Positions 1 through 28,979 of a stretch of 32,000 nucleotides of DNA are shown piece by piece. The stretch is from Nitrosococcus oceani ATCC 19707 (GTDB lineage: Bacteria; Pseudomonadota; Gammaproteobacteria; Nitrosococcales; Nitrosococcaceae). The notes beneath the pieces were generated by a model. The model was not told the DNA's origin, made no database searches, and worked only from the letters and a program-made list of their open reading frames with translations. The translations under genes were made by a program, and so were the position numbers. The stretch covers positions 510,001 through 542,000 of the forward strand of contig NC_007484.1 of the NCBI RefSeq assembly GCF_000012805.1, read 5' to 3'. How positions within the stretch are numbered: position 1 is the stretch's first letter; every line of letters starts with the position of its first letter.

Positions 1-2
1 CT

Positions 3-305
3 TACGCCATTGTGGCGCTTGTTGGATTATCTGTATTGGGGTTGTCATTGCTCGCGGCAGCTTTCTGGCGTCCTCCCTCCAGGCCATTGCGGGCGCCCGA
101 TTCTTGGAAGAAATACCGTTTCGGTTTTGCCACTTATTCGCTTATTTTTGTGGCCTTCGATATGGAAATGATTTTTATGTATCCCTGGGCGGTAGTCTTT
201 GCAGAGATTGGATTGAAAGCGTTTCTCGATATGCTGGTATTTATTGCGTTGCTGGGCGGTGGCATTACTTATGTGTGGGGAATGGGCGGATTGAAATGGG
301 AGTGA
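3..305 (+). CDS. nuoA: Complex I subunit A (NuoA/ND3)-like; 5' end probably beyond the window edge
   Basis: The frame is open from base 3 (track ORF 12..305). It has TM helices and the family motif FDMEMIFMYPWA. The stop TGA 303-305 overlaps the next start (ATG 296 or ATG 305). Confidence 0.8.
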   Translation, partial: YAIVALVGLSVLGLSLLAAAFWRPPSRPLRAPDSWKKYRFGFATYSLIFVAFDMEMIFMYPWAVVFAEIGLKAFLDMLVFIALLGGGITYVWGMGGLKWE

Positions 306-1228
306 TGACAAGCGTATTAGCCACCGTGGCCGCGCTCTTGGCGGGGGTAGGGCTTACGGCCTGGCTGGAGCCTAAGTGGCTTGGCGCTAACGGCGAGCGG
401 GGACCGGCAAGTCCCGTGAAAATTGCCGCCGATGTGCGGTTAACTCAGCCCGATCCCTGGCTCTATTACGCCGGGCCGGTAATCGCGTGTATGGGCGTGA
501 GCTGGGCCATGGTCTGCATTCCCTTTAGTCCTTCCCTGGTAGGCAATGATGTCAATATCGGGCTTTTTTATTTCATCGTTGTGGTTGATTTCGTAGTGCT
601 GGGTATTGCCTTGGGCGGATGGGGTGCCAACACCCCCGATAGTGTTGAATCCTGTTATCGGGCTATCGCCCAATTGATTGCCTATGTGATTCCCCTCGGG
701 CTAGCGATTATCGGTCCGATTATGATGGCCCGCTCCTTATCGACGGTCCACATTGTTGAGGCGCAGGCCAACGCCCAGCTTTGGTATCTCATCCCCCAGC
801 CAATTGGTTTTATTCTTTATGTGATATCGGGATTGATGCAAGTGTATCGGGCGCCTTTTCTGGAACCCTTTGCCGATCCCATTGGCCGGGGTGTGCTAAG
901 CGTGTTTGGCGGCTGGAAGGGTTTGCTCTGGCGGCTCGCCTTGTCAGGGGTGCTTTTTGTGGTCGCCGCCATGGGAGCAGTCATTTTTCTCGGCGGCTAT
1001 AGCGGGCCGTTCCTGCCAGGGCCGGTTTGGATGGTCATCAAGACCGTGGGGCTAATGGTCCTCATGATTTGGTTGGGGCGCCAGGTGCGGTTATTGAGCG
1101 TGGCTGAAATGCTCAGCCTGTCATGGAAAGTACTTATCCCGGTAGGTTTATTGAACGTGCTGCTAGTGGGCGGATTAATTTTGTTGGGTGCCGGTCAAGA
1201 CCCCTTTTCTCCTGGAGGAGGCCACTGA
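296..1228 (+). CDS. nuoH: Divergent complex I subunit H (NuoH/ND1)-like polytopic membrane protein
   Basis: Track ORF 104..1228. The 5' part overlaps nuoA, so I start at ATG 296 (alternative ATG 305 in a TGATG overlap). ND1-like blocks are present (GWGAN..YRAIAQLIAY, IPQPIGFILY, YRAPF), but many family-conserved acidic residues are replaced. Confidence 0.7.
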   Translation: MGVMTSVLATVAALLAGVGLTAWLEPKWLGANGERGPASPVKIAADVRLTQPDPWLYYAGPVIACMGVSWAMVCIPFSPSLVGNDVNIGLFYFIVVVDFVVLGIALGGWGANTPDSVESCYRAIAQLIAYVIPLGLAIIGPIMMARSLSTVHIVEAQANAQLWYLIPQPIGFILYVISGLMQVYRAPFLEPFADPIGRGVLSVFGGWKGLLWRLALSGVLFVVAAMGAVIFLGGYSGPFLPGPVWMVIKTVGLMVLMIWLGRQVRLLSVAEMLSLSWKVLIPVGLLNVLLVGGLILLGAGQDPFSPGGGH

Positions 1229-1229
1229 G

Positions 1230-2027
1230 ATGGAAGTGAGTCCGGTGCTGCAATGGGCCGCCTTTGGGATCTTCGCTTTTATCAGCATCGCCGGAGCCTT
1301 GGGCATGGCTACGACCATGAGCATGTTTCGCAGCGGTATTTTTCTGATGGCTTCATTTATTGGGGTGGCGGGATTGTTTATTTTATTGCTTGCGGACTTG
1401 CTGGCCCTGTTGCAGATCATGATGTACATCGGCGGTATGTTGGTGATGATTCTGTTCATGCTGCTGTTCAGCGGCGATCCCGGCGGTGGGATGATGAGCA
1501 CTCATATGCGGCTTCGGGGTCCTGAGTGGTTCTTTAGCCTGGGTTTGGCCCGCTCCCCATCCGGAACGGATGGGAATAACGCTAATGATTCCTCGGATAA
1601 GGAAGAAGACCAGCGTGATCAGGCCAGGGACAGCCACCAAGAGGAAGGGGAGAAGGAGGAGAGTAACGACATGTCCATGTTTACCCCTGCTAAGCGGGGG
1701 GCCGCTGGGCTGGCGCTAGGTATCGGCGTTTTACTGATCGCGCTGCTGCTGTGGCGGCCCCATTGGGCGGTGGTGGCGCAAATGCCGGATCCGGACTCAC
1801 CCCGCCGTATTGGCCACTTGCTCATGGATAAATACATGATCGCTTTTGAAGGCGCGGGGCTGCTTATTCTACTGGGTATTTTCGGCGCCGTTCTGCTGCA
1901 ACGCCCTGGCAAATATCCTGACTCGGCCCACCGGGAGGAACTCCGGGCCGCGGTAGAGGATGCGCCCGCCCCGGTGAAAACCGATCCACTTAAACCCTTA
2001 GGGCTGGATCGCGATAGGGAAAAATAA
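1230..2027 (+). CDS. nuoJ: Complex I subunit J (NuoJ/ND6)-like with a long acidic low-complexity insertion
   Basis: ATG 1230 lies 1 nt after the nuoH stop, with the SD 'ggaggagg' at 1214-1221. The N-terminal TM1-3 region looks like NuoJ (FGIFAFISIAGALGM...LLQIMMYIGGMLVMILF). The insertion 'NNANDSSDKEEDQRDQARDSHQEEGEKEESND' precedes the last TM segments. Confidence 0.75.
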   Translation: MEVSPVLQWAAFGIFAFISIAGALGMATTMSMFRSGIFLMASFIGVAGLFILLLADLLALLQIMMYIGGMLVMILFMLLFSGDPGGGMMSTHMRLRGPEWFFSLGLARSPSGTDGNNANDSSDKEEDQRDQARDSHQEEGEKEESNDMSMFTPAKRGAAGLALGIGVLLIALLLWRPHWAVVAQMPDPDSPRRIGHLLMDKYMIAFEGAGLLILLGIFGAVLLQRPGKYPDSAHREELRAAVEDAPAPVKTDPLKPLGLDRDREK

Positions 2028-2055
2028 AATTTATGCTGTCCTTAAAGATGGCCCC

Positions 2056-2370
2056 ATGATCGCTATTCCCTTAACCGCCTTCTTGCTGGTGGCGGCTGTT
2101 CTTTTCGCCATTGGGCTATATGCCGTCATCGCCCAACGCACCGCGGTGATGGTGCTGATGGGAATTGAGCTGCTGCTGAATGCGACGGGATTGAACCTGG
2201 TGGCTTTTTGGCGGTTCACCGCTCCCCAGGATTATTCCGGCCAAATTTTCGTGATCATTATCGTGACCATTGGGGCGATCGAAATGGCCATCGGGTTGGC
2301 AATCATGATGTTGTTATATCGCCGCCACCAGACCGTGCAGGTGGATAAATATAAAGAGTTAAAGGGATGA
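2056..2370 (+). CDS. nuoK: Complex I subunit K (NuoK/ND4L)
   Basis: A 104-aa protein with three TM helices. Both family-typical membrane glutamates are present (GIELLLNA and GAIEMAIGLA). Confidence 0.85.
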   Translation: MIAIPLTAFLLVAAVLFAIGLYAVIAQRTAVMVLMGIELLLNATGLNLVAFWRFTAPQDYSGQIFVIIIVTIGAIEMAIGLAIMMLLYRRHQTVQVDKYKELKG

Positions 2371-2421
2371 GGGTGTTACTACTGGCAGTGCCCCTAGCTC
2401 CCTTGGCCATGGCGGCGCTGA

Positions 2422-4068
2422 TTGCCAGGCCGTGGGAGTGGACTTGCCGTCGGAGGGATTTTTATCTCCGCCCTGGCGGTGTTGCCCTTATCCGGCGCCG
2501 ATGCCGAGGTGGCGTTGACCTGGTTCACGGTGGGCCCCTTTGAGCTGACGGTGAGTCTGGCGGCCGATAGGCTGGGTTGGTGGATGGCCACGCTGGTTGC
2601 CTGGATTGCATTGCCCGTGGCCGTTTATTCGGTACCCTACATGGCCGATGAGGCGGGCCGCCAGCGGTTTTTTGCGTGGCTGAGCTTTTTTGTAGGGATG
2701 ATGCTCGCCTTGGTGCTGAGTCAGTCATTGCTATTGCTATTTATCGCCTGGGAAGGAGTAGGGCTGGCCTCTTTTGTATTAATTGGCCAGCACCACGGGC
2801 AAGCCAAGGCCCGGCAAGCCGCCTTCAAGGCCCTGCTCATGACCCGGCTGGGGGACATGGGCCTACTGCTTGGTTGGCTGTGGATGCTGATGATCACCGG
2901 CACCACCCAGTTACCGCCTTTTTTTCAGCAGGTGGAGGATGGAGCTTTTACCGCTGGGACGCTCAATCTGCTGGCTCTGTTGTTTTTTCTGGCGGCTATA
3001 GGAAAAAGCGCTCAATTACCCTTGACTGCTTGGCTTCCCGAAGCGATGGCGGCTCCGACGCCGGTATCAGCCTTGATTCATTCGGCCACCATGGCCGCCG
3101 CTGGGGTGTTTTTGGTGTTGCGGTTATTTCCCTTGTTTGAGCATGCCCCCTTAGCGTTAGCAGTGGTGTTGTGGGTTGGCGCCTTCACCGCCCTGATCGC
3201 CGCCTTGGTGGCGACCGCCCAATATGATTTAAAGCGCCTTCTTGCCTGGTCCACCGTCTCCCAGCTGGGCGAAATGATGCTTGCACTGGGGCTCGGAGGG
3301 CCATTGGGCGCCGCTTTTCATTTGACCGTCCATGCCACTTTCAAATCGGCGCTTTTTCTCAGCGTTGGCGCCCTGGAGCGGGCCACCGGCACCCGGGATC
3401 TGCGTCAGCTTGGCGGGTTGGGAAAGCGCTTGCCGTGGACGGCGGGCGCCTTTATTGCTTCTGCCTTGGCGTTGGCGGGCTTTCCCTTGTTATCGGGCTA
3501 TTGGAGTGAGGAGGAACTGCTAAGGCAGGCCGTTTCCGTCCATACCGCTTGGGGAGTTTTCATGCTGGTGCTGATTTTACTGGCTGGAATCTATATAGGC
3601 CGGGCCGCTATGGCCACTTTCGGGTTAGCGCCCCAGGCGGTCATGCCAGCGAATCGGCGAGAATCGGCGCCCCTAGTTGGACCTGCCCTGGGTTTGGCCC
3701 TTGCCGCCGCCGGGTTGGGAGCGATCATTAAAACCCCCATCGAGTCCATGTTGTCCTTCGAGGCCGGCAGCGCGACCCTGACTGGGGCCTGGACCCTGAG
3801 TGCCATTCTGGCAAGCCTGGTGGGATTAGGAGTGGGCGCATGGCGGGTTTACCACTGGGGGCCAGCGCCCGCCCTGGGCGGTTGGCCTAGCAGGCTGGTC
3901 GTTATCATCCATGGTTTAGTCTCTGGGGTTGCCCGTGCTGCTAAAGCCGGCGCGCTGGTGCTGGTCTGGTTGGAACGGGGCTTTGATGGAGCAGCGCGAT
4001 CTTTCCCCACTGGAATAGATAGAGTTAGTCGCCAATCGGATAGGAGGCCAATTGGAACAGGGCCTTGA
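2422..4068 (+). CDS. nuoL: Complex I subunit L (NuoL/ND5)-like, main body; the gene appears broken at both ends by frame changes
   Basis: Antiporter-like motifs are present: FIAWEGVGLASFVLIG (TM5 Glu), AAIGKSAQLPLTAWLPEAMAAPTPVSALIHSATM (TM7 Lys) and HATFKSALFL (TM12 Lys). The track start is TTG 2422. A better-looking start (ATG 2367, ATGA overlap with the nuoK stop, hydrophobic MRVLLLAVPLAPLAMAALIA) is in another frame. Confidence 0.8.
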   Translation: MPGRGSGLAVGGIFISALAVLPLSGADAEVALTWFTVGPFELTVSLAADRLGWWMATLVAWIALPVAVYSVPYMADEAGRQRFFAWLSFFVGMMLALVLSQSLLLLFIAWEGVGLASFVLIGQHHGQAKARQAAFKALLMTRLGDMGLLLGWLWMLMITGTTQLPPFFQQVEDGAFTAGTLNLLALLFFLAAIGKSAQLPLTAWLPEAMAAPTPVSALIHSATMAAAGVFLVLRLFPLFEHAPLALAVVLWVGAFTALIAALVATAQYDLKRLLAWSTVSQLGEMMLALGLGGPLGAAFHLTVHATFKSALFLSVGALERATGTRDLRQLGGLGKRLPWTAGAFIASALALAGFPLLSGYWSEEELLRQAVSVHTAWGVFMLVLILLAGIYIGRAAMATFGLAPQAVMPANRRESAPLVGPALGLALAAAGLGAIIKTPIESMLSFEAGSATLTGAWTLSAILASLVGLGVGAWRVYHWGPAPALGGWPSRLVVIIHGLVSGVARAAKAGALVLVWLERGFDGAARSFPTGIDRVSRQSDRRPIGTGP

Positions 4069-4387
4069 TAAAACAGGACGATTTTTTTGCCGGGGAGCGT
4101 TGTTTTTGGCCCAGGGTGTTCTGTTGTATGAAAGATTTTTCAATGCCGGCGCCCACGCTAGCAGCGGCGCGATTATGACGGTTGGTCGGGCAACGGCAAG
4201 CTTTGAGTCGCAAATATGGGGGGTGGGTCATGACCGCCTGGCGGGGTTTTTCCAGTGGGCCGGGCAAAAGCTGCGCCTATCGCAGAGCGGCAAACTTTAT
4301 CTTTATACCTTGAGCGTGTTTGCTTTTATTCTGCTGATAGGGGTAGGGATTGTCATGGTTTGGCTATTGCTGGAAAGAGGCTATTAA
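4052..4387 (+). CDS. NuoL C-terminal segment (lateral-helix / last-TM-like) encoded in the +1 frame relative to the nuoL body
   Basis: Track ORF of 111 aa. It ends '...AGQKLRLSQSGKLYLYTLSVFAFILLIGVGIVMVW', which resembles the NuoL C-terminal 'lr.lQtG.l..Y + final TM' block. It overlaps the end of the main nuoL frame by 17 nt. Confidence 0.55.
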   Translation: MEQGLDKTGRFFCRGALFLAQGVLLYERFFNAGAHASSGAIMTVGRATASFESQIWGVGHDRLAGFFQWAGQKLRLSQSGKLYLYTLSVFAFILLIGVGIVMVWLLLERGY

Positions 4388-4409
4388 ACCGCAAGGTATC
4401 CTATTTACT

Positions 4410-5885
4410 ATGCTGAGCCTGACTATTTTTTTACCTTTAATCACGGCCTTGGTAGTGTTAATCCTGCCCCGTTCACGCCCCTTTCTGATTCGCTGGGTCG
4501 CATTGGCGGGTGCGGTGCTGACCTTTGCCGCCGCCTTGGGATTACTGGCTGGGTTTGATACCGGCAGGCCAGGATTGCAGTGGCGCACTAGGCTGCCTTG
4601 GATCCCTCCCGTCAATGCGGCCTACGATGTAGGCGTCAATGGCTTTTCGCTGGCGCTGATTTTACTGACAGCATGGTTGCTGGTCACCGTGATGGTCTAT
4701 GTGCTGCGAAATGACAATCGCCCCAAGGGCCATGCCGCGCTTTTCCTGCTAATGGCAACCGGTTTGCTGGGGGTCTTCGCCGCCCAGGATTTGCTGCTGT
4801 TTTATCTTTTCTTTGAAGTGGGCCTAGTGCCCATGTATTTCATTATCGGCATCTGGGGCCACGACAATCGCCGCTACGCCGCCATGAAATTTTTTCTTTA
4901 TACCCGGGCCGCCAGTTTGGCGATGCTGCTAAGCTTTTTGGCGTTGTATCTGTTGATGGAGCCCCATACCTTTTCCCTGCCTGCTATCATTGAGGCTCAA
5001 CCCCTGGCCCAGGCGGGCGGGGCTGGCGGCTGGGTCATGCTCGGGATGCTCATCGGCTTTGGCGTGAAACTGCCCACCGTGCCCCTTCATAACTGGCTGC
5101 CCGATGCCCACGTGGAAGCGCCCACCGAAGGCAGCGTGATGCTTGCTGGCATTCAACTCAAGATGGGCGCTTATGGCCTGCTCGCCATCATGCTGCCCAT
5201 TATGCCGCAGGTGGTGTTTGATTATGCTTGGCTTTTGCTGGCGCTGGCCTTGGTTTCCCTCGTCTATGGGTCACTAGCCGCGCTAGCCCAGCAGGATTTA
5301 AAGCGTCTTATTGCTTATACCTCCATCAATCATATGGGATATATCATGTTGGCGGGGGCCTTAGCTGTGTTGGCGCCCACCGCCGGCACCCAAGAGTTAG
5401 CCTTAAATGGCGGTATTTATCAGATTATCAGCCATGGCTTGTTGACGGGGGGGATGTTTTTCGCTGTGGGAATGATTCAAGATCAAACGGGGACGCGGGA
5501 GATGGGCCGGCTTAGGGGACTCTCCCGGCAAGCTTCCGCTTTTTCCTTGCTGACCGGCGTGCTGGTGTTCGGCTCCCTAGGATTACCCGGGCTTTCGGGA
5601 TTTATTGGAGAATTTCAAGTATTAGGAGCGGCCGTTTCCTGGAATCTCTGGATCGCCGGGGTGGCCCTGGTGGCGTTAGTGATCACCACGGGCTTATATC
5701 TGCGTATCGTGATCTCGGTGCTATGGGGCGAGCCCCGTACGGGGACAGGGGCTATGAAGGAGCCGGAGGGACGAAAGCTGGCGGTCATGGGCAGTTTAGT
5801 AATGTTATCCCTGTGGCTGGGGCTGTTGCCGGCAGGGTTGCTGGGGGTGATTCAAGAGACCGTCCGGAGTTTGGCGGCAGGATGA
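4410..5885 (+). CDS. nuoM: Complex I subunit M (NuoM/ND4)
   Basis: ATG 4410 gives the typical N-terminus MLSLTIFLPLITALVVL. Motifs are LFYLFFEVGLVPMYFIIGIWG, GFGVKLPTVPLHNWLPDAHVEAPT and GIQLKMGAYG. The track start at 4350 is an upstream extension. Confidence 0.9.
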   Translation: MLSLTIFLPLITALVVLILPRSRPFLIRWVALAGAVLTFAAALGLLAGFDTGRPGLQWRTRLPWIPPVNAAYDVGVNGFSLALILLTAWLLVTVMVYVLRNDNRPKGHAALFLLMATGLLGVFAAQDLLLFYLFFEVGLVPMYFIIGIWGHDNRRYAAMKFFLYTRAASLAMLLSFLALYLLMEPHTFSLPAIIEAQPLAQAGGAGGWVMLGMLIGFGVKLPTVPLHNWLPDAHVEAPTEGSVMLAGIQLKMGAYGLLAIMLPIMPQVVFDYAWLLLALALVSLVYGSLAALAQQDLKRLIAYTSINHMGYIMLAGALAVLAPTAGTQELALNGGIYQIISHGLLTGGMFFAVGMIQDQTGTREMGRLRGLSRQASAFSLLTGVLVFGSLGLPGLSGFIGEFQVLGAAVSWNLWIAGVALVALVITTGLYLRIVISVLWGEPRTGTGAMKEPEGRKLAVMGSLVMLSLWLGLLPAGLLGVIQETVRSLAAG

Positions 5886-7294
5886 AACTTTGGGCGCTCA
5901 TCCCCGAGCTTATCCTGGGGGGGTCATGCTTGCTATTGGTCCCCCTTGCCGGCTGGGTGCGGGGTAAATGGCGGATGCTGCCAGGGCTAATGGCCCTGCT
6001 GGGTCTGCTTGCCTGCCTGGTGGCGACTGCCAGAATGCTTCCCTGGCAGCCGGTGACGGCCTTTCACGGTAGTTACGCCATTGATGGTTTCGCCCATTTT
6101 TTCAAGCTAATTATTGAATTAAGCAGTCTGCTTACGGTGGCGCTGCTCATGATATATTTCCGCGGCCACTCCCAGCAGGCCCCGGCAGCGGTCGCGGTGA
6201 TTTTCGCCACTTTGGGCGCCGTGGGGTTGGCTTCTAGCCGGGATCTGGGGTTAATCGTGCTTTTCTTTCAGATGATGAGCATGGCGGGCTATGTGCTGGC
6301 CGCCCTTGAGCGTCACCACCGGCCTGCCTTAGAAGCCGCCCTTAAATATTTTATTTATGCGGGGGTCACCTTAGCCACCATGGCCTATGGGCTGACTTTC
6401 TTTTACGGCTTGACGGGTAGTCTTAATTTGCAAGTGATTGGATCGGATTTGCAGGACGCTGATGGGCTGTGGGTGACCTTGGCCCTGATTTTGATTCTCG
6501 TTGGTTATGGCTTTGAGATTACGTTGGCGCCCTTTCATGTGTGGGCTCCGGATGTATTTTCCGGCGCGACGGCGCCAGTGGCCGGCTTTCTTGCCGTTGT
6601 GCCCAAAGCGGCTGGCATAGCGGCCCTGCTGCGTTTTATGCTGGAAGGAATGCCCGGTGAAATGGTGGGATGGCCCCTCTGGCTCGCTATAGGCGCCGCC
6701 ATGACCATGACGCTGGGTAATGTCGTCGCCCTGGGGCAGAATCATCTTAAACGCTTGCTGGCCTGGTCGAGCATCGCCCACGCCGGATATCTTCTCATGG
6801 CGGTAGCCGTGGCTGAACGGGCGCCGGAGGCTTTGGCGGCCATTGGTTATTACTTCGCTGCTTATTTGTTTATGACCCTGGGCGCATTTGCAGTGGGCGC
6901 TCATTTGGAACGCGCGGCAGGCAGCGATTCGTATGAAGCGCTTCGTGGCTTAAGTCAACGCGCGCCTATGGGAGCCGGGGTGTTGGCCCTATGCCTGTTG
7001 TCGCTGGCAGGCATCCCGCCCCTGGCCGGTTTTGCCGGCAAAGTTTTTTTGCTAGAAGCAGTGCTTGACGGGGAAATGATATGGCTTGCCGTTATCGCGG
7101 CGATTAATATGACCCTGGCGCTCTATTATTATGTCAAGATTATTGCCGAGATATATCTTTACTCTCCTGTCCGCACTTATTCTATGCCTACAGGAGGCGG
7201 TTACCTTATTGTTTACAGCGGGTGTGTGTTGGGCATTCTCGGCTTGGGGATCTGGCCTGGACCGTTGCTGGTATTGCTTGAATTAATGGGATAA
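5882..7294 (+). CDS. nuoN: Complex I subunit N (NuoN/ND2)-like
   Basis: ATG 5882 overlaps the nuoM stop (ATGA). Motifs are LAPFHVWAPDVFSGATAPVAGFLAVVPKAAG, LKRLLAWSSIAHAGY and GIPPLAGFAGKVFLL. The track start at 5723 lies inside nuoM. Confidence 0.85.
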   Translation: MKLWALIPELILGGSCLLLVPLAGWVRGKWRMLPGLMALLGLLACLVATARMLPWQPVTAFHGSYAIDGFAHFFKLIIELSSLLTVALLMIYFRGHSQQAPAAVAVIFATLGAVGLASSRDLGLIVLFFQMMSMAGYVLAALERHHRPALEAALKYFIYAGVTLATMAYGLTFFYGLTGSLNLQVIGSDLQDADGLWVTLALILILVGYGFEITLAPFHVWAPDVFSGATAPVAGFLAVVPKAAGIAALLRFMLEGMPGEMVGWPLWLAIGAAMTMTLGNVVALGQNHLKRLLAWSSIAHAGYLLMAVAVAERAPEALAAIGYYFAAYLFMTLGAFAVGAHLERAAGSDSYEALRGLSQRAPMGAGVLALCLLSLAGIPPLAGFAGKVFLLEAVLDGEMIWLAVIAAINMTLALYYYVKIIAEIYLYSPVRTYSMPTGGGYLIVYSGCVLGILGLGIWPGPLLVLLELMG

Positions 7295-8220: not shown

Positions 8221-8332
8221 TCTATACAAGGTGCCTGTACTTAGTAGAGTGATTGGCACAAAAATTTCTTATAAAGAAGTGCTCATAAATTTAGCTAAAT
8301 TTTTTGTTAACCTATTTTTTAAGGAGATTAAT

Positions 8333-8800
8333 ATGGTGGCGTCTTTGGATAAAATAAATTTTGATATGCTCGTCAAAATGGCGGTGCTAGTAATGGCAAG
8401 TGCTGCATTGGCGGCGGTTCCCGCTATGAGTTCCGCTCAGACGGGGGCTCAACCCCAGCAACTAGAAGATGTAGAAGCCCTGCTGGATAATGTGGTTCGG
8501 TATGATGGTAAAAAAGTGAGTGTTTCCGGTGAGGTGGAAGAAGTCATTGATGAAAAAGCTTTCATTCTTGAAAGCGGGGGGCTTTTTGAGGATGAAATGG
8601 TAGTCTTGAAACCTGCCGGTAATTTGATGGTTAAGGAAGACTACGAGGTGACTGTGACAGGGACAGTGCGCGCGGTGGCCCTGGTTGATATCGAGCGTGA
8701 ATACGGCTGGGACTTAGATCCCCAGATTAAGATAGAGCTTGAAAATATAGAAGCTTTCCTTATCGCGGATAGCATTGAGATAACCGAGAAGGATGATTGA
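8333..8800 (+). CDS. Secreted protein of unknown function, paralog A (signal peptide, acidic beta-rich domain)
   Basis: ATG 8333 has the SD 'aaggag' 6 nt upstream. The signal peptide is ...ASAALAAVPAMSSAQ. It has clear paralogy with 11701..12225 (blocks FILESGGLF, VDIEREY, EAFLIAD are shared). Confidence 0.8.
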   Translation: MVASLDKINFDMLVKMAVLVMASAALAAVPAMSSAQTGAQPQQLEDVEALLDNVVRYDGKKVSVSGEVEEVIDEKAFILESGGLFEDEMVVLKPAGNLMVKEDYEVTVTGTVRAVALVDIEREYGWDLDPQIKIELENIEAFLIADSIEITEKDD

Positions 8801-10820: not shown

Positions 10821-11297
10821 TCACATTCGTGTTTGCCGTCCCTGGCGAACACGTTTGGTAGGCCAATAATCCTTAGGGACCCAATAAGGGCGGGCTCCAT
10901 AACGGCTGTGTACGTCGCTAGCCCAGCGTTGATCAGCCATTGATGGCCAGTGGTCTTTATCAAAGCCGGGGTCGTTTTCAAGGACTTCTTTATTAACTCT
11001 TAATACAAAACACTTCTCATCCGCGTCCAAAGTCAAAGCACTCCAGGGCACGGCAAATAATTTATCTCCCACGCCGAGGATTCCCCCAAAGGATAACACC
11101 GCATAGGCTACGCGGCCTTTAGGTACATCTATCATGATGTCCTTGATTTTACCTAACTCCTCTCCTTCCAGGTTGAATACCTCATTATTTTCCAGAGAGT
11201 TTGCGGTCATGAGGTAGGGACCAGGTCCGCTAGTATTGTCTTCGCCTCCAATGACTCGAGGTTGATCGCTGCCGGGGGTAGTTATAGGGGTATTCAT
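10821..11297 (-). CDS. PRC-barrel domain protein
   Basis: The core 'NLEGEELGKIKDIMIDVPKGRVAYAVLSFGGILGVGDKLFAVPWSAL' is a typical PRC-barrel signature. The SD is 'ggagg'. Confidence 0.85.
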   Translation of the reverse strand: MNTPITTPGSDQPRVIGGEDNTSGPGPYLMTANSLENNEVFNLEGEELGKIKDIMIDVPKGRVAYAVLSFGGILGVGDKLFAVPWSALTLDADEKCFVLRVNKEVLENDPGFDKDHWPSMADQRWASDVHSRYGARPYWVPKDYWPTKRVRQGRQTRM

Positions 11298-11700: not shown

Positions 11701-12225
11701 ATGAGCAAACTTTTTTGTAAATTAAGCATAAGCACTATGACTAAAATGGCTATAGCCGCTATGGTGAGCGCCGCGCTTATGTCGCTACCTGCCATGGGTG
11801 TCGCCCAGACGACTGCCTCGCCCTCTTCAGGTGTTGACCCATCCTCTCAGATGGGCGGGCAGCAAGCAGGTGGGCAATCCCAGACGGTAGAAGACGTGGA
11901 AGAGCTACTGGATAATATAGAACGCTACGATGGTCAGAAAGTTACTGTTTCCGGTGAAGTAGAAGAAAGGATTGATAAGAGATCCTTTATCCTTGAAAGT
12001 GGTGGGCTTTTCAATGATGAGATAGTTGTGGTGATGCCAAAAGGCAATCTTAATGTTCAGGAAGACGACGAGGTTGCGGTTACCGGGAAGGTTCGCGCGG
12101 TAAAATTTGTTGACATTGAGCGTGAATACAATTGGGTTCTGAATGAAGAGATAAAGAGTGAAATTGAGGATGTGGAGGCTTTTCTTATTGCAGACCATGT
12201 TGAAATAACAAAACAGGACGATTAA
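11701..12225 (+). CDS. Secreted protein of unknown function, paralog B
   Basis: The SD is 'aaggag'. It has a signal peptide (...LPAMGVAQ) and the mature part aligns with 8333..8800 over its whole length. Confidence 0.85.
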   Translation: MSKLFCKLSISTMTKMAIAAMVSAALMSLPAMGVAQTTASPSSGVDPSSQMGGQQAGGQSQTVEDVEELLDNIERYDGQKVTVSGEVEERIDKRSFILESGGLFNDEIVVVMPKGNLNVQEDDEVAVTGKVRAVKFVDIEREYNWVLNEEIKSEIEDVEAFLIADHVEITKQDD

Positions 12226-17265: not shown

Positions 17266-18141
17266 TTATTTCGACGCAGGAATGGTTAGCTTAGTCCCCA
17301 CCGATAATTGGTTGGGATTTTTGATCTTGTCCTTGTTTGCCTTGTAAATCAAGCGCCATTTATTGGCATCGTCGTAGACTCTCGCGGCAATAGTAGAGAG
17401 AGAATCACCCTGTTGAACAGTGATTAATTTTGAGTTAATTCCTTCTCCTTCCTGGCCTTTTCCCGAAGGTTTGGGTTGTTCTGATTGAATGGGAGGAAGT
17501 TTGGTAGATTTAGAGCGGGAAGAGTCCGTGTTCCCCAGCTCTTCCGCTGTTGGAACTTTTCCTCTCTCGTAAGGTTCCTTGGAGGTTTGTTCAAATGTGT
17601 CTTCCTTATTTGGGGTGTCGGCCTGTTCAGGGGGTGCCTGGGCAGGCATCTTATCCTCCCGCGCTAGCTGTGGAGAAGACTCTCTGGATTTCTCGAATTC
17701 AGCCTTCTCTTCCTCCCTATTTAATTCCTCTAAAATCGCGGCAAATTCGTCCTTTTCATCTTCTGGCGTGGTTTTCTTTTCTTTAGGAACTGATTTATAT
17801 TTTTGATCGTCCGCAGCTAGTTCAGTAGATCCGGGTTCCGTGGATTTAGTTGCACTTACTTGTGGAACGAGTGCATCATTATCCTTGTTGCTCACCTTTA
17901 CTTCTTCATCCTGGCGTCCAAGGTATACCCACACCGCACCTGTTGCTAATACTACAATCAATAAGAGCACAATGACTATGGATAAAATTCCACCGTGGCT
18001 TTTAGCGGGTCCGTACACAAAGGATTTAGGGGTGGACCGGCGGTAGTGGCCATGAATGTTGGGTCTAGAATGGGCCATACTTATTCCAATAGTGTTTTTT
18101 AAGTCAGTTAAAGTAGAAATAAGAGATAAATAGACTTTCAT
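17266..18141 (-). CDS. Membrane-anchored LysM domain protein (YgaU/Kbp-like C-terminal LysM)
   Basis: The C-terminus 'ITVQQGDSLSTIAARVYDDANKWRLIYKANKDKIKNPNQLSVGTKLTIP' is a LysM domain. There is one TM helix and a low-complexity acidic linker. An alternative start is MAHS at 18078. Confidence 0.85.
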   Translation of the reverse strand: MKVYLSLISTLTDLKNTIGISMAHSRPNIHGHYRRSTPKSFVYGPAKSHGGILSIVIVLLLIVVLATGAVWVYLGRQDEEVKVSNKDNDALVPQVSATKSTEPGSTELAADDQKYKSVPKEKKTTPEDEKDEFAAILEELNREEEKAEFEKSRESSPQLAREDKMPAQAPPEQADTPNKEDTFEQTSKEPYERGKVPTAEELGNTDSSRSKSTKLPPIQSEQPKPSGKGQEGEGINSKLITVQQGDSLSTIAARVYDDANKWRLIYKANKDKIKNPNQLSVGTKLTIPASK

Positions 18142-18859
18142 TTTTATCTTCCCTATTTTTTTAATATTCTATTGAGACGTAATAAATTTATAGTACAATC
18201 AAACTGTTTTTGCAGTTAAGATTTTTTTAGGTGCGAGATGCAGGCCCTTAATAGTGAGCAGTCCTTGAGCCTGATAAATGTGTCGGAAGTTAGTGAGTTA
18301 CATTTTTGATGGTGCTAAAAACCATCCGAGTTGAAAATATTAAATAGATTTGGCTTCTCAGATAGGTAACCAGTAATAAATTTGGACTTGCTAGATGCAA
18401 GATATATACGCTATGGGCGAATCATCCGGTAATTAATATCTTCATCCTCAGCGATACCCCGGACCCAGGTATCTGGGTGGAAGAGGAGCTGCATTGGCAC
18501 TGGATGCGCCAGGATTTAAATTCTCACGCCCTATTAATAGGGATCTATCAATCCCTGTTTCTATGTATACACGCAGTATTCACTCCAACCGACGCTTTTG
18601 AGAGAAAGGGCTATTCCTGATCCCGGAAGAGACCTGGCCACCACCGGTACTTGTCTTACTGCATGAAACGCTTGCCAGCCTACCTGTTCAAGAGAAATGC
18701 TGTTTATTCTCTGATCTAGAGCCCTAAAAACCCTATCCATTGAGTTATCTAATACCGGCTAGAGAATAAAAGTCTAGACTATATAAAGGATAAAAGCTCG
18801 TAAATTATTGAGCAATGATTTAAATGACCCAAGCTAATTTTTGAGATAGGAAAAAAGAT

Positions 18860-26832: not shown

Positions 26833-27438
26833 GTGAAGAATAATTACATATTAATCGATTACGAGAATGTTCAACCAAAGAGTTTGGCTGTTCTCAAAGA
26901 TCATCCATCTAAGGTACTGGTTTTTATAGGCGCTAATCAAACTAAAGTGCCATTTGATTTTGCTTCATCGCTACAATCCTTAGGCGGCAATGCCGAGTAC
27001 GTGAAAATCGCTGGAAATGGTTCCAACGCTCTGGATTTCCATATTGCGTTCTATATAGGTCAATTAGCGGAGCGGGACCCGAAAGGCTATTTTCACATCA
27101 TCTCGAAAGATACTGGCTTTGATCCCCTTATCCGGCATTTGAAAGAAAAAAAGATATACGCTCAACGAGAAAAGGAGATATCCGAGATACCTTTTCTAGG
27201 CGTTTCGAATGCTACTTCATCCGAAGAGAAAATAGTTGCTATTGTAAAAAGCCTTTCCTCGCGTGGTCATTCCCGGCCCCGCAAGGTTAAAACTTTAGCA
27301 AATACGATCAACGCATTGTTCATGAAAAAGCTTGGAGAAACTGAATTAATGCGTTTGATTGAACAATTGCGCCAGCAGAAATATATTGTGATAGAGAACG
27401 AAAATGTTAGTTATAAACCACCCATTAGCCATCCCTAA
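26833..27438 (+). CDS. PIN-like (NYN-type) domain protein with a C-terminal helical/wHTH-like tail
   Basis: The start is GTG. The N-terminus 'ILIDYENVQPK...VLVFIGANQ...GSNALDFHIAFYIGQ...FHIISKDTGFDPLIRHL' fits the PIN-like/NYN pattern of acidic residues. Confidence 0.65.
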   Translation: MKNNYILIDYENVQPKSLAVLKDHPSKVLVFIGANQTKVPFDFASSLQSLGGNAEYVKIAGNGSNALDFHIAFYIGQLAERDPKGYFHIISKDTGFDPLIRHLKEKKIYAQREKEISEIPFLGVSNATSSEEKIVAIVKSLSSRGHSRPRKVKTLANTINALFMKKLGETELMRLIEQLRQQKYIVIENENVSYKPPISHP

Positions 27439-27800
27439 CAAGGCCGTGAATCGATTGCCTCACTGGTTTTATTCTGTAGGAAATTCCGGCTGAGCGTTCT
27501 GGACGTTAAGATGGAGGCAAGAGGTGTTGCCTTCTCGGTATCAGCGGTCCCAGTACAGGTCTTCCACGGAGGTTTTGCCACTAACTTCTGCCTCTCTCCT
27601 CTAAGCTCCTTCGAAGGAGTACAGGGATGTACGACGACCCCCTAGCGAGAGTGCGAAGTGGAACGGCGCATCGAGCGCGAGGGTCCCATAAAGTGATGTT
27701 GGCGGCGGGCAAAATTCGCGGTAAAATAAGCGCGGCTAGAGGGTGCTTGCAACACCACCTAGCCACTTGCCACCGACCCAATGAGAAAAGCATTGAGGCC

Positions 27801-28979
27801 ATGACCGAGCACGATTCTACCACTGTTCAGCGGTCCTATACATTCCGCTTCTACCCCACGAGTGTCCAGCGCCAGCAACTGGCTATGGAATTCGGCCATG
27901 CCCGGTGGGTATGGAACACCTGTCTGACCTGGCGGGGCCGTCAATATAGGGTACATGACAAGCGCGTGACTGGCGTTGATTTTAGCCGCCAGCTCACGTT
28001 CCTCAAAGGGTTAGGCCCGTACGCTTGGCTCAAGGAGGCCAGCGCCACCTGCCTGATCCAAAAGCTCAGGGACCAGGACACGGCCTTCAGGCATTTTTTT
28101 GCGGGGCGAGCGAAGTATCCCCGTTTCAAAAAAAGAACGCATACCCAAAGCATCCGCTATCAACTCGATCAACGTCAGGTAGCAGGCATGTATCGAGCGG
28201 GCGAGTTTCTTAAATTGCCCAAACTCGGGGCACTCAAGCTCAAGTGGTCCCGCAAGCCCCAGGGCATCCCCAAGATGGTGACGGTCACCCAGGATTGCGT
28301 CGGCCGTTATTGTGTTTCGTTCATGTGCGAGGAAACCCTCCAACCCCTACCGCGAAAGCCAAACGGTATCGGTGTTGATTTAGGGGTGTGCGATGTGGTG
28401 GTGACCTCCGAGGGCTGGAAGTCCGGTAATCCTCGGCACCTACGCACGCATACCCGGCAACTCAGAAAAACCCAGCGCAGGCTATCCCGCAAGCGTAAGA
28501 GCAGTGTTCGTTGGCATCGTCAGCGGATACGGGTTGCTAAAGCTCATGCCAGGGTGAGCAATACCCGCCAGGATTGGCTGCACAAGCTCACCACGGCGCT
28601 GATTCGCCAGGCGGGGTTCATTGCCATGGAAACGCTCAACGTCAGGGGCATGATGGCCAATAGACGGCTATCCAAGGCGTTGGGCGATGTGGGGATGCAT
28701 GAACTCAAGCGGCAAATGGAATACAAGGCTAAGTGGTATGGCCGCGAGTTTAGGCAAGTAGACCGCTGGGCGCCCACCAGTAAAACGTGCTCGGTGTGTG
28801 GCGCAGTGCAAAAAGCCATGCCGCTCAAGGTCCGCGAGTGGACCTGCCCGGACTGCCAAACAGCCCATGACCGCGACATCAACGCGGCCAGAAATATTTT
28901 AATTTTAGCTACCGGCGGGAGGCCGGGAAGTCATGCGCGTGGAGGAGTATACCAACCGGCGGCGGCTTATGGCTGCTAA
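27801..28979 (+). CDS. tnpB: TnpB (OrfB) RNA-guided endonuclease, apparently intact
   Basis: ATG 27801 gives MTEHDSTTVQRSYTFRFYPT... RuvC-I is IGVDLGV and RuvC-II is IAMETLNVRGM. The zinc ribbon is CSVCG...CPDC and RuvC-III is HDRDINAARNI. The track start at 27627 is an upstream extension across the left end. Confidence 0.9.
   Translation: MTEHDSTTVQRSYTFRFYPTSVQRQQLAMEFGHARWVWNTCLTWRGRQYRVHDKRVTGVDFSRQLTFLKGLGPYAWLKEASATCLIQKLRDQDTAFRHFFAGRAKYPRFKKRTHTQSIRYQLDQRQVAGMYRAGEFLKLPKLGALKLKWSRKPQGIPKMVTVTQDCVGRYCVSFMCEETLQPLPRKPNGIGVDLGVCDVVVTSEGWKSGNPRHLRTHTRQLRKTQRRLSRKRKSSVRWHRQRIRVAKAHARVSNTRQDWLHKLTTALIRQAGFIAMETLNVRGMMANRRLSKALGDVGMHELKRQMEYKAKWYGREFRQVDRWAPTSKTCSVCGAVQKAMPLKVREWTCPDCQTAHDRDINAARNILILATGGRPGSHARGGVYQPAAAYGC

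Follow-up and report, generated by a model that had tools for sequence, protein, structure and literature searches.

A conserved complex I membrane-arm operon of Nitrosococcus oceani with a remodelled NuoH and a possible role in cation transport

Salinispora, Streptomyces and Kocuria contain partial nuoAHJKLMN operons that earlier papers refer to as marine adaptation genes and assume to encode Na+ or H+ pumps; in the Salinispora operon NuoJ is annotated as hypothetical and the nearest clades are those of marine Proteobacteria. For Nitrosococcus oceani ATCC 19707, Stein et al. (2013) listed Noc0474-0481 as 'NuoAHJKLLMN (C I-membrane arm)', with the two NuoL genes Noc0478 and Noc0479, and discussed it as forward complex I (PMC3772326), and two complete complex I operons of clades B and E are described from Nitrosococcus (PMC4453560). 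The 'NuoADHJKL' cassette of Marinobacter atlanticus (ACP86_11540-11570) lies inside a copper-resistance cluster with which it is co-expressed (Bird et al., PMC8233155). In the Mrp antiporters, MrpA(N)/D/C/A(C) are homologous to NuoL/M/N/K/J and NuoH has no counterpart, and the Mrp Na+ exit path coincides with the E-channel of complex I, whose entrance is the chain of NuoH glutamates leading to the quinone site (Steiner and Sazanov, PMC7419157). In complex I research, the central unsolved problem is how the antiporter-like subunits receive, via NuoH and the E-channel, the signal from the quinone site. Here, a stretch of 32,000 nucleotides of the N. oceani ATCC 19707 genome (NC_007484.1, positions 510,001 to 542,000; hereafter the window) was analysed, at the start of which lies an operon that is almost certainly the Noc0474-0481 entry. 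The membrane-arm subunits of complex I (NuoA, H, J, K, L, M, N) are all encoded in this operon, without any other gene, and the operon belongs to a tightly conserved, horizontally spread family. Since the operon type is already on record it is not a new category; the residue pattern of its NuoH and NuoA, its Met/His signature and its copper context appear to be undescribed, none of the three having turned up for this operon type in the literature searched, the coverage of which was incomplete.

According to the open reading frame listing and Pfam, the operon occupies positions 1-7294 on the plus strand and comprises seven complex I membrane-subunit genes in the order nuoA-H-J-K-L(split)-M-N. 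The nuoA-like gene (1-305, plus strand; Pfam PF00507, E=3e-19) is truncated by the start of the window, which holds residues 6-105 of the 105 amino acids (aa); the genome record contains it completely (L001 9684-10001) as the first gene of the operon, preceded by a divergently transcribed PRC/LysM gene. Its stop codon overlaps the start of the nuoH-like gene in the sequence TGATG. The latter gene (305-1228, plus strand; 307 aa; Pfam PF00146, E=1.6e-44) reached 152.9 bits against a gathering cutoff of 27 in Pfam, and 143.6 against a cutoff of 399 with the NCBIfam NuoH equivalog model; NCBI names its product 'complex I subunit 1/NuoH family protein'. Among the curated NCBIfam models those for NuoM and NuoK pass their cutoffs, those for NuoH, NuoA, NuoJ and NuoL fail, and that for NuoN fails narrowly.

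For the analysis of NuoH, 32 family members were aligned by MAFFT with the E. coli protein and one other canonical NuoH, and canonical positions are given in E. coli numbering. The best solved-structure match of the window protein was E. coli NuoH (HMMER, E=6e-34). An earlier note on this DNA, written from the letters alone, had proposed that NuoH and NuoA have lost the conserved charged residues of the quinone cavity and E-channel, and all strings it quoted from the two proteins are present in the window where it had placed them. Its reading of the 'AETNR' block, with the R-A-P-F anchor kept and nearly all acidic positions replaced, largely agrees with the HMMER and MAFFT comparisons to E. 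coli NuoH. The block belongs to the loop between transmembrane helices (TM) 5 and 6 and reads LMQVYRAPFLEPFADPIGRGVLSVFGGWKGLLWRLALSG (positions 833-949, plus strand; aa 177-215): the R-x-P-F anchor was confirmed, D213 is replaced by L186, E216 by F189, E228 by V200 and E241 by L213, and E220 is deleted. The Glu of 'AETNR' at position 206 corresponds to Q179 in the window, with E. coli itself having V there, and E218 corresponds to D191 at a position that is variable within the family. As the note had seen, 'SYE' reads 'AYV' (680-688, plus strand; aa 126-128), which changes E157 to V128; furthermore, K140 is replaced by P and R286, R291, R293 and D295 by G, L, S and A. The N-terminal 'ERK..Q.R.GP' motif had been described as changed as well. 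Here a deletion of 14 residues in the TM1-TM2 loop (E. coli 50-63) does follow, but the Glu itself is conserved, E36 being E22 in the window and retained in 117 of 120 family members; the remnant of this loop reads EPKWLGANGERGP (368-406, plus strand; aa 22-34). D79, R148, R209, K274 and K303 are also retained.

The per-column conservation scoring that the note had suggested was carried out on an alignment of 120 family members and 90 longer NuoH homologues, the latter collected by exhaustive profile searching, using the 65 columns that are each at least 80% conserved in the longer homologues (12 acidic, 12 basic and 41 uncharged). The family kept one of the 12 acidic, four of the 12 basic and 25 of the 41 uncharged columns. 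The difference between charged and uncharged columns (Fisher p=0.002; also p=0.002 for acidic versus uncharged) indicates that the loss was selective for charged residues and not a matter of general divergence. As judged from these alignments, most conserved residues with acidic or basic side chains in the quinone cavity and E-channel are missing from the NuoH of the family. A comparison of a structural model with a solved bacterial complex I, likewise suggested beforehand, was performed with AlphaFold2 (pLDDT 74.5, pTM 0.79) and Foldseek; the model of the window NuoH matches E. coli NuoH (7p63_H) with a TM-score of 0.83, and the eight-helix ND1 fold is therefore predicted to be retained.

Hundreds of relatives of the NuoH-like protein share 58-88% identity with it at a length of about 300 aa, that of N. 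watsonii being 88% identical, and the mean column identity of the 32-member alignment is 68%. The substituted positions form invariant motifs of the family (MQxYRAPFLEPFA, GGWKxxxWR, MMARSLS, VEACYRxxAQLxAYVxPLGLA and FYFIVVVDF), and new invariant residues are found in the membrane Asp D95 and in E187, E115 and R210. 'Erosion', the term used in the earlier note, is thus the wrong word for a charged set that was replaced by a new conserved set. Moreover, the window NuoH departs from the family at only one of 105 positions whose conservation among the other members reaches 90% or more, which is below the family median. Pseudogene decay of NuoH was ruled out by this low deviation together with the family-wide invariance. 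Within a sequence library clustered at 50% identity, essentially one full-length entry (424 bits) and four fragmentary entries (270-294 bits) represent the family. The full-length relatives that come next there score at most 229 bits; they are likewise short NuoH-like proteins and retain the acidic set to varying extents. P0126, the closest sister NuoH, was found on a contig of 1.3 kb.

NuoA has changed in length as well. With 105 aa it is shorter than most solved NuoA/ND3/NdhC chains (115-122 aa; the range of chains of ordinary size is 113-147 aa, with E. coli NuoA at 147 aa). Its residues 37-104 align without gaps to NdhC 52-119 in HMMER, and in the comparison with five solved NuoA/NdhC chains 'DSWKKYRFGF' pairs with the canonical 'GDAWLQFRIRY'. 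Therefore 'YRFG' (114-125, plus strand) is not the counterpart of 'YECG'; the equivalence of the two, as given in the earlier note, was rejected by this alignment and goes back to a hand alignment that was out of register. Instead, the YE(C/S)G segment has been deleted: the HMMER alignment begins at the canonical GDA(W/R), and MAFFT places a gap at YE(C/S)G. The loop before 'FDME' is indeed shorter than canonical, by about 10-11 residues relative to NdhC or 9 relative to E. coli (MAFFT) and not by the roughly 15 that had been estimated. The E-channel carboxylates of NuoA are kept. The 'FDME' motif (156-167, plus strand) carries D58 and E60, the equivalents of E. coli D79 and E81, and this FDxE pair is present in all 22 family sequences in which residue retention in NuoA, J, K, L, M and N was scored against E. 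coli (21 diverse loci and the window).

In the same 22 sequences, NuoK E36 and E72 and NuoJ Y59 are retained throughout, and NuoJ G61 is also kept. The window equivalents are E38 and E76 of nuoK (2056-2370, plus strand; 104 aa) and Y66 of the nuoJ-like gene (1230-2027, plus strand; 265 aa; Pfam PF00499). The proposed loss of E-channel charges accordingly applies to the NuoH part of the channel, while the NuoA, NuoJ and NuoK parts were kept. The product of nuoM (4410-5885, plus strand; TIGR01972, 476.7 bits, above cutoff) is canonical at all positions scored, with the equivalents of E144, K234, K265, H322, H348 and E407. NuoL keeps the equivalents of E144, K229, H334, H338 and K342, and its TM12 Lys K399 is Glu in 19 of 22 sequences (window E363, nucleotide region 3496-3520). 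In the product of the nuoN-like gene (5882-7294, plus strand) the equivalents of K247 and K395 are kept, and two coupling residues are changed in 20 of 21 sequences each: the TM5 Glu E133 to Gln and the TM7 Lys K217 to Glu (window Q130 and E212, nuoN region 6257-6527). The retention in NuoA, J, K, L and M suggests that the rewiring is confined to the E-channel entrance in NuoH and the adjoining coupling pair in NuoN.

The nuoL gene of the window is split. The nuoL-like core (2422-4068, plus strand; 548 aa) loses its reading frame near 4002-4004, and in tblastn intact NuoL proteins of two related loci (L009 and L025) continue in another frame from about 4004. The split-off open reading frame (4052-4387, plus strand; 111 aa) encodes the lateral helix and the last TM helix and is preceded by an AGGAGG of its own (4042-4047), with TTG at 4052 as the start codon. 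NuoL of the relatives is intact, with 615-660 aa. This broken frame, together with a NuoJ loop that has lost its His/Met character and the lack of metal-related neighbours (both described below), would be expected if the family were functional and the N. oceani copy a decaying or disabled remnant. Several observations make such a remnant very unlikely: the low deviation of NuoH, the intact key residues of NuoA, J, K, L and M, the Shine-Dalgarno sequence and start codon of the split piece, and the close NuoH of N. watsonii. Moreover, all eight genes including both NuoL parts responded to ammonium, with transcript ratios about 2- to 12-fold lower on ammonium, and for NuoH, NuoJ and both NuoL the transcript levels of ammonium-exposed cells lay about 9-12-fold below those of starved cells (PMC3772326).

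The distribution of the family was determined from a scan of one genome per species, which relies on exact peptide patterns and returned 58 loci with the operon family. The hosts are Chloroflexota, Acidobacteriota, Bacteroidota/Ignavibacteria, Deinococcus/Trueperaceae, Actinomycetota, one cyanobacterium, Desulfobacteraceae and Alpha-, Beta- and Gammaproteobacteria, and the family spans at least ten phyla. From Salinispora, Streptomyces and Kocuria no loci were returned by this pattern-based scan. Genomes from soil, freshwater or engineered systems (Acidobacteriota, Methylobacterium, Chloroflexota, Ignavibacteria) account for most family members found. The gene order A-H-J-K-L-M-N was observed in every locus long enough to judge, about 55 in number. 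The operon is also carried by conjugative or mobilizable plasmids, among them a conjugative Rhodopseudomonas plasmid, Methylobacterium plasmids and a Deinococcus plasmid (L041), and some of the carriers are metal-resistance plasmids. Identities of 55-70% across phyla and the carriage on plasmids point to horizontal spread as a seven-gene unit. Clustering of the neighbouring genes yielded no universal extra partner gene; DUF305, csoR, cytochrome c and others are each restricted to some lineages.

The absence of Q-module genes, which the earlier note had assumed, was confirmed. With E. coli queries, tblastn detected no homologues of NuoB, CD, E, F, G or I in the 32-kb window, by which a Q-module hidden elsewhere in the window was ruled out, and the genome record holds no peripheral-arm nuo gene in the 10 kb upstream of the operon. 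In the related loci, no B, CD, I, E, F or G gene lies within 10 kb of the operon apart from one Bacteroidota locus with a separate canonical nuo operon. In this locus (L015 1-16800), about 700 bp separate the end of an E. coli-type nuo operon (…G-H-I-J-K-L-M-N) from the partial nuoA-H-J-K-L-M-N that follows it, so that both kinds of membrane arm are encoded back to back. An artefact of mis-assembly or of the truncated window was excluded, as the architecture is identical in the genome record, in independent read-set assemblies and in all related loci. The proposal of a changed function rather than a mis-assembled operon is supported by the recurrence of the seven-gene order, the invariance of the altered residues, the deviation of NuoH at a single position and the transcription and regulation of the operon.

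The membrane arm might instead borrow NuoB/C/D/I, and possibly E/F/G, from a complete N. oceani nuo operon and make up an alternative isoform of complex I. Nitrosococcus has two full operons from which these subunits could come (PMC4453560), the operon was labelled and discussed as part of forward complex I (PMC3772326), and a canonical nuo operon stands directly upstream in L015. Borrowing is nevertheless highly improbable in the light of the quinone-cavity and docking elements of NuoH and NuoA that are deleted or uncharged, of a seven-gene unit that crosses phyla and plasmids without a co-transferred Q-module, and of a long insertion in NuoJ that would lie at the face of the peripheral arm.

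Taken from the alignments, NuoH and NuoA of the family have lost the loops and charges that form the quinone cavity, dock NuoB and NuoD and start the E-channel, with the downstream ion-translocating machinery kept. On balance we lean towards a stand-alone, quinone-independent cation transporter that is coupled to the proton motive force and is not a respiratory enzyme. The complex would assemble without a peripheral arm and without quinone chemistry and would act as a secondary transporter, so that complex I would in effect have given rise anew to an antiporter of the Mrp kind. Protons would enter through NuoL, NuoM and NuoN, and their inflow would drive a cation out via the remodelled region of NuoH/A/J/K, the counterpart of the Mrp Na+ path; the entrance of the E-channel would have been rebuilt and its exit would now be lined with methionines.

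Three independent lines, namely methionines, the NuoJ loop and the gene neighbourhood, point the same way, to a copper signature in the family. NuoA, NuoJ and NuoK carry 24 family-specific invariant Met (5 in NuoA, 16 in NuoJ and 3 in NuoK), none of which is Met in E. coli; nearly all invariant Met or His of NuoL and NuoM are common to E. coli. Three of the five in NuoA flank the D/E pair (window M59, M61 and M64), the family motif being FDMEMIFMYPW as against the canonical FD(V/I)E(T/I/A)(V/L)(F/Y)L(Y/F)(P/A)W. Those of NuoJ include MMY at the conserved Tyr, MxxxMSM in loop 1 and MDMSM before TM4, and the TM3 methionines are missing from four solved NuoJ sequences; the three of NuoK adjoin E36 and E72.

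The loop between TM3 and TM4 of NuoJ carries an insertion of 30-195 residues, typically with 15-32% His+Met and MDH-type repeats, the lowest relatives having 10% and 13%. In an Anaerolineales locus (L011) a Pfam HMBD domain is located inside this loop (E=4e-14). The E. coli NuoJ has five helices and its C-terminus inside; with this topology and the Arg and Lys residues that flank the insertion, the loop is probably cytoplasmic, at the face that normally bears the peripheral arm. The most Met/His-rich loop seen, with 32%, is that of a Chloroflexia locus (L009), in which an MbnB/TglH/ChrH-family (DUF692) gene for the modification of ribosomally synthesized and post-translationally modified peptides is situated at 17774-18577, about 100 bp downstream of nuoN.

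Recurrent neighbours of the operon are multicopper oxidase, CopB, CusF, DUF411, CopZ/HMA, P1B-ATPase, MerR- and CsoR-type regulators, CusA-type RND pumps, HMBD proteins, DUF326 and DUF305. At least one copper or metal marker, the markers being drawn from the same loci, was found within 10 kb in 26 of 44 non-Methylobacterium loci and in 14 of 16 Methylobacterium loci. Some of the links are operonic: copZ-csoR-nuoA lie on the same strand with gaps of 34 and 111 bp, and in Deinococcus DUF326(Csp)-DUF305-nuoA lie on the same strand with a gap of 19 bp. In D. marmoris (L029, L030) and D. saxicola (L025, L032) two operon loci are present per assembly on different contigs, each preceded by DUF326 (Csp-like) and DUF305; the gene layouts of the two D. 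marmoris loci are apparently identical and may represent an assembly duplicate.

A mono-haem cytochrome c gene occurs near the operon in 12 loci, and in six loci of Bacteroidota/Ignavibacteria type it follows nuoN on the same strand after 48-235 bp. Together with the frequent multicopper oxidases, this would suit a complex driven by a periplasmic redox partner (such as a cytochrome c or a multicopper oxidase) that couples copper or other redox chemistry to ion pumping, an idea that has been raised for the Marinobacter cassette (PMC8233155). Such a partner is not universal, cytochrome c is missing from most loci and from the window, and no cofactor-binding motif was seen in the seven subunits, which leaves this idea the slimmest chance among those considered.

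For the cation transporter favoured here, Cu(I) or Ag(I) is put forward as the family-wide substrate only speculatively, at somewhat less than even chances, and with lower confidence for the N. oceani copy. The ion might be caught by the His/Met-rich cytoplasmic NuoJ loop and passed along the methionines around the carboxylates of NuoA, NuoJ and NuoK. More tentative again is the full proposal of a new class of heavy-metal exporter, in which the quinone site and E-channel entrance would have been converted into a Met-lined path for Cu(I)/Ag(I) that is fed by the NuoJ loop and powered by several protons per cycle via NuoL, NuoM and NuoN.

A number of points weigh against the transporter model and its metal substrate. 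The cytoplasmic position of the NuoJ loop is deduced from the E. coli topology and the flanking positive charges. The neighbourhood count has no random-background control and its markers were chosen from the loci in which they were counted, and 18 of the 44 non-Methylobacterium loci are without any metal marker. The changes E133Q and K217E in NuoN and K399E in NuoL could mean that the antiporter-like subunits work differently or not at all. The N. oceani copy itself is atypical in the family: its NuoJ insertion (1476-1688, plus strand) is rich in Asp, Glu and Ser with 8% His+Met and is without the His/Met-rich character of the relatives, no metal genes are present in the 32-kb window or in the 10 kb upstream of the operon, and its nuoL is frameshifted. 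This copy keeps all conserved residues and the family methionines; its acidic loop, the lack of nearby copper genes and the split nuoL suggest that its substrate may differ from that of the relatives. Finally, the papers on marine adaptation read the same kind of operon as a Na+/H+ pump.

The latter reading can be generalised to salt and pH homeostasis by a generic Mrp-like Na+(K+)/H+ antiporter or ion pump, with the copper genes only travelling along on stress islands. It draws on the work on Salinispora, Streptomyces and Kocuria in which partial nuoAHJKLMN was proposed to pump Na+/H+ as a set of marine adaptation genes, on the established homology to Mrp (PMC7419157), and on N. oceani being marine with an acidic rather than His/Met-rich NuoJ loop. 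We consider it unlikely, although it deserves attention: the soil, freshwater and engineered-system origin of most members does not fit, invariant Met clusters, His/Met loops and an HMBD insertion are unexpected at Na+ sites, and the linkage of csoR/copZ and DUF305/DUF326 is operonic and thus goes beyond the level of an island.

A widespread and conserved membrane arm without a quinone site separates the redox-coupling elements of complex I from the ion-translocation elements, and with only seven subunits it is simpler to study by structural and transport methods. In N. oceani itself, Noc0474-0481 should no longer be assumed to form part of a forward complex I. If the copper link is true, a new kind of metal efflux is spreading on plasmids and resistance islands, and 'NADH dehydrogenase' genes that were counted as respiratory or as marine-adaptation genes in genome surveys would have to be read differently. 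A heavy-metal exporter of the proposed kind would be a proton-motive-force-driven counterpart of the CopA ATPase and a natural 'Q-module-free' complex I in which the coupling of the E-channel to the antiporter-like subunits could be dissected.

The remaining genes of the window are unrelated to the operon. Two paralogous small genes (8231-8800 and 11701-12225; 189 and 174 aa) have no Pfam match; their products have hydrophobic N-termini resembling signal peptides (putative) and alike C-terminal halves (…VSGEVEE.ID…FILESGGLF.DE.VV…VTG.VRAV…DIEREY…EAFLIAD..EIT..DD). They are located near a PRC-barrel gene (10821-11297, minus strand), another PRC/LysM gene being the one just upstream of nuoA. About 20 kb downstream of the operon, at 26833-28979, a PIN7-domain gene is followed by an IS605 OrfB/TnpB-type gene with a Cas12f1-like TNB domain, a mobile-element remnant.

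Compared with respiratory complex I, the operon family has the seven membrane subunits in canonical order and recognised by Pfam, a NuoH with predicted ND1 fold, the lateral helix of NuoL, and the NuoA D/E pair, the NuoJ Tyr, the two NuoK Glu and most Lys, Glu and His residues of NuoL, M and N. It differs by the lack of NuoB/C/D/I/E/F/G, of the cavity and E-channel charges of NuoH and of loops in NuoH and NuoA, by the coupling changes in NuoN and NuoL, and by the Met-rich NuoA, J and K and the long NuoJ loop insertion. With the operons published as 'C I-membrane arm', 'partial NDH-1 operon 2' or marine adaptation genes it shares gene content and order; those descriptions are based on annotation only and see a Na+/H+ pump or forward complex I, and the likeness to the actinomycete operons is one of gene content and order. 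Under the proposed model it resembles Mrp (Mnh/Sha/Pha) as a stand-alone membrane complex with antiporter-like and NuoK/NuoJ-type subunits in which H+ is coupled to a cation. Mrp, however, has MrpB/E/F/G, which are absent here, and is without homologues of NuoH and NuoA, which are present here. As the operon proteins match only Nuo families in Pfam, their sequences clearly place the origin of the operon in complex I and not in Mrp.

The nuoA-D-H-J-K-L cassette of Marinobacter is likewise derived from complex I, with a short divergent NuoH and a copper-gene setting, but it has a NuoD homologue, is without NuoM and NuoN, and keeps more of the acidic loop residues in its NuoH. A locus matching this cassette (L071 5600-11227) was also observed, with the order DUF411-nuoA-nuoD-nuoH-nuoJ-nuoK-nuoL, that is, with NuoD and without NuoB. 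The association with copper may be a wider theme among short NuoH-like families. The group 4 [NiFe]-hydrogenase-related complexes (MBH, MBS, Ech, FHL and Ehr) differ in that the window cluster is without NuoB-like and NuoD-like genes. The likeness to Cu(I) exporters, the CopA-type P1B ATPases and CusCBA RND pumps, is functional only and consists of Met-lined paths, His/Met-rich or HMBD segments and co-location with csoR/cueR, copZ, multicopper oxidase and CusF; no relationship in sequence or fold exists between them and the Nuo family, for which metal transport is a proposal only.

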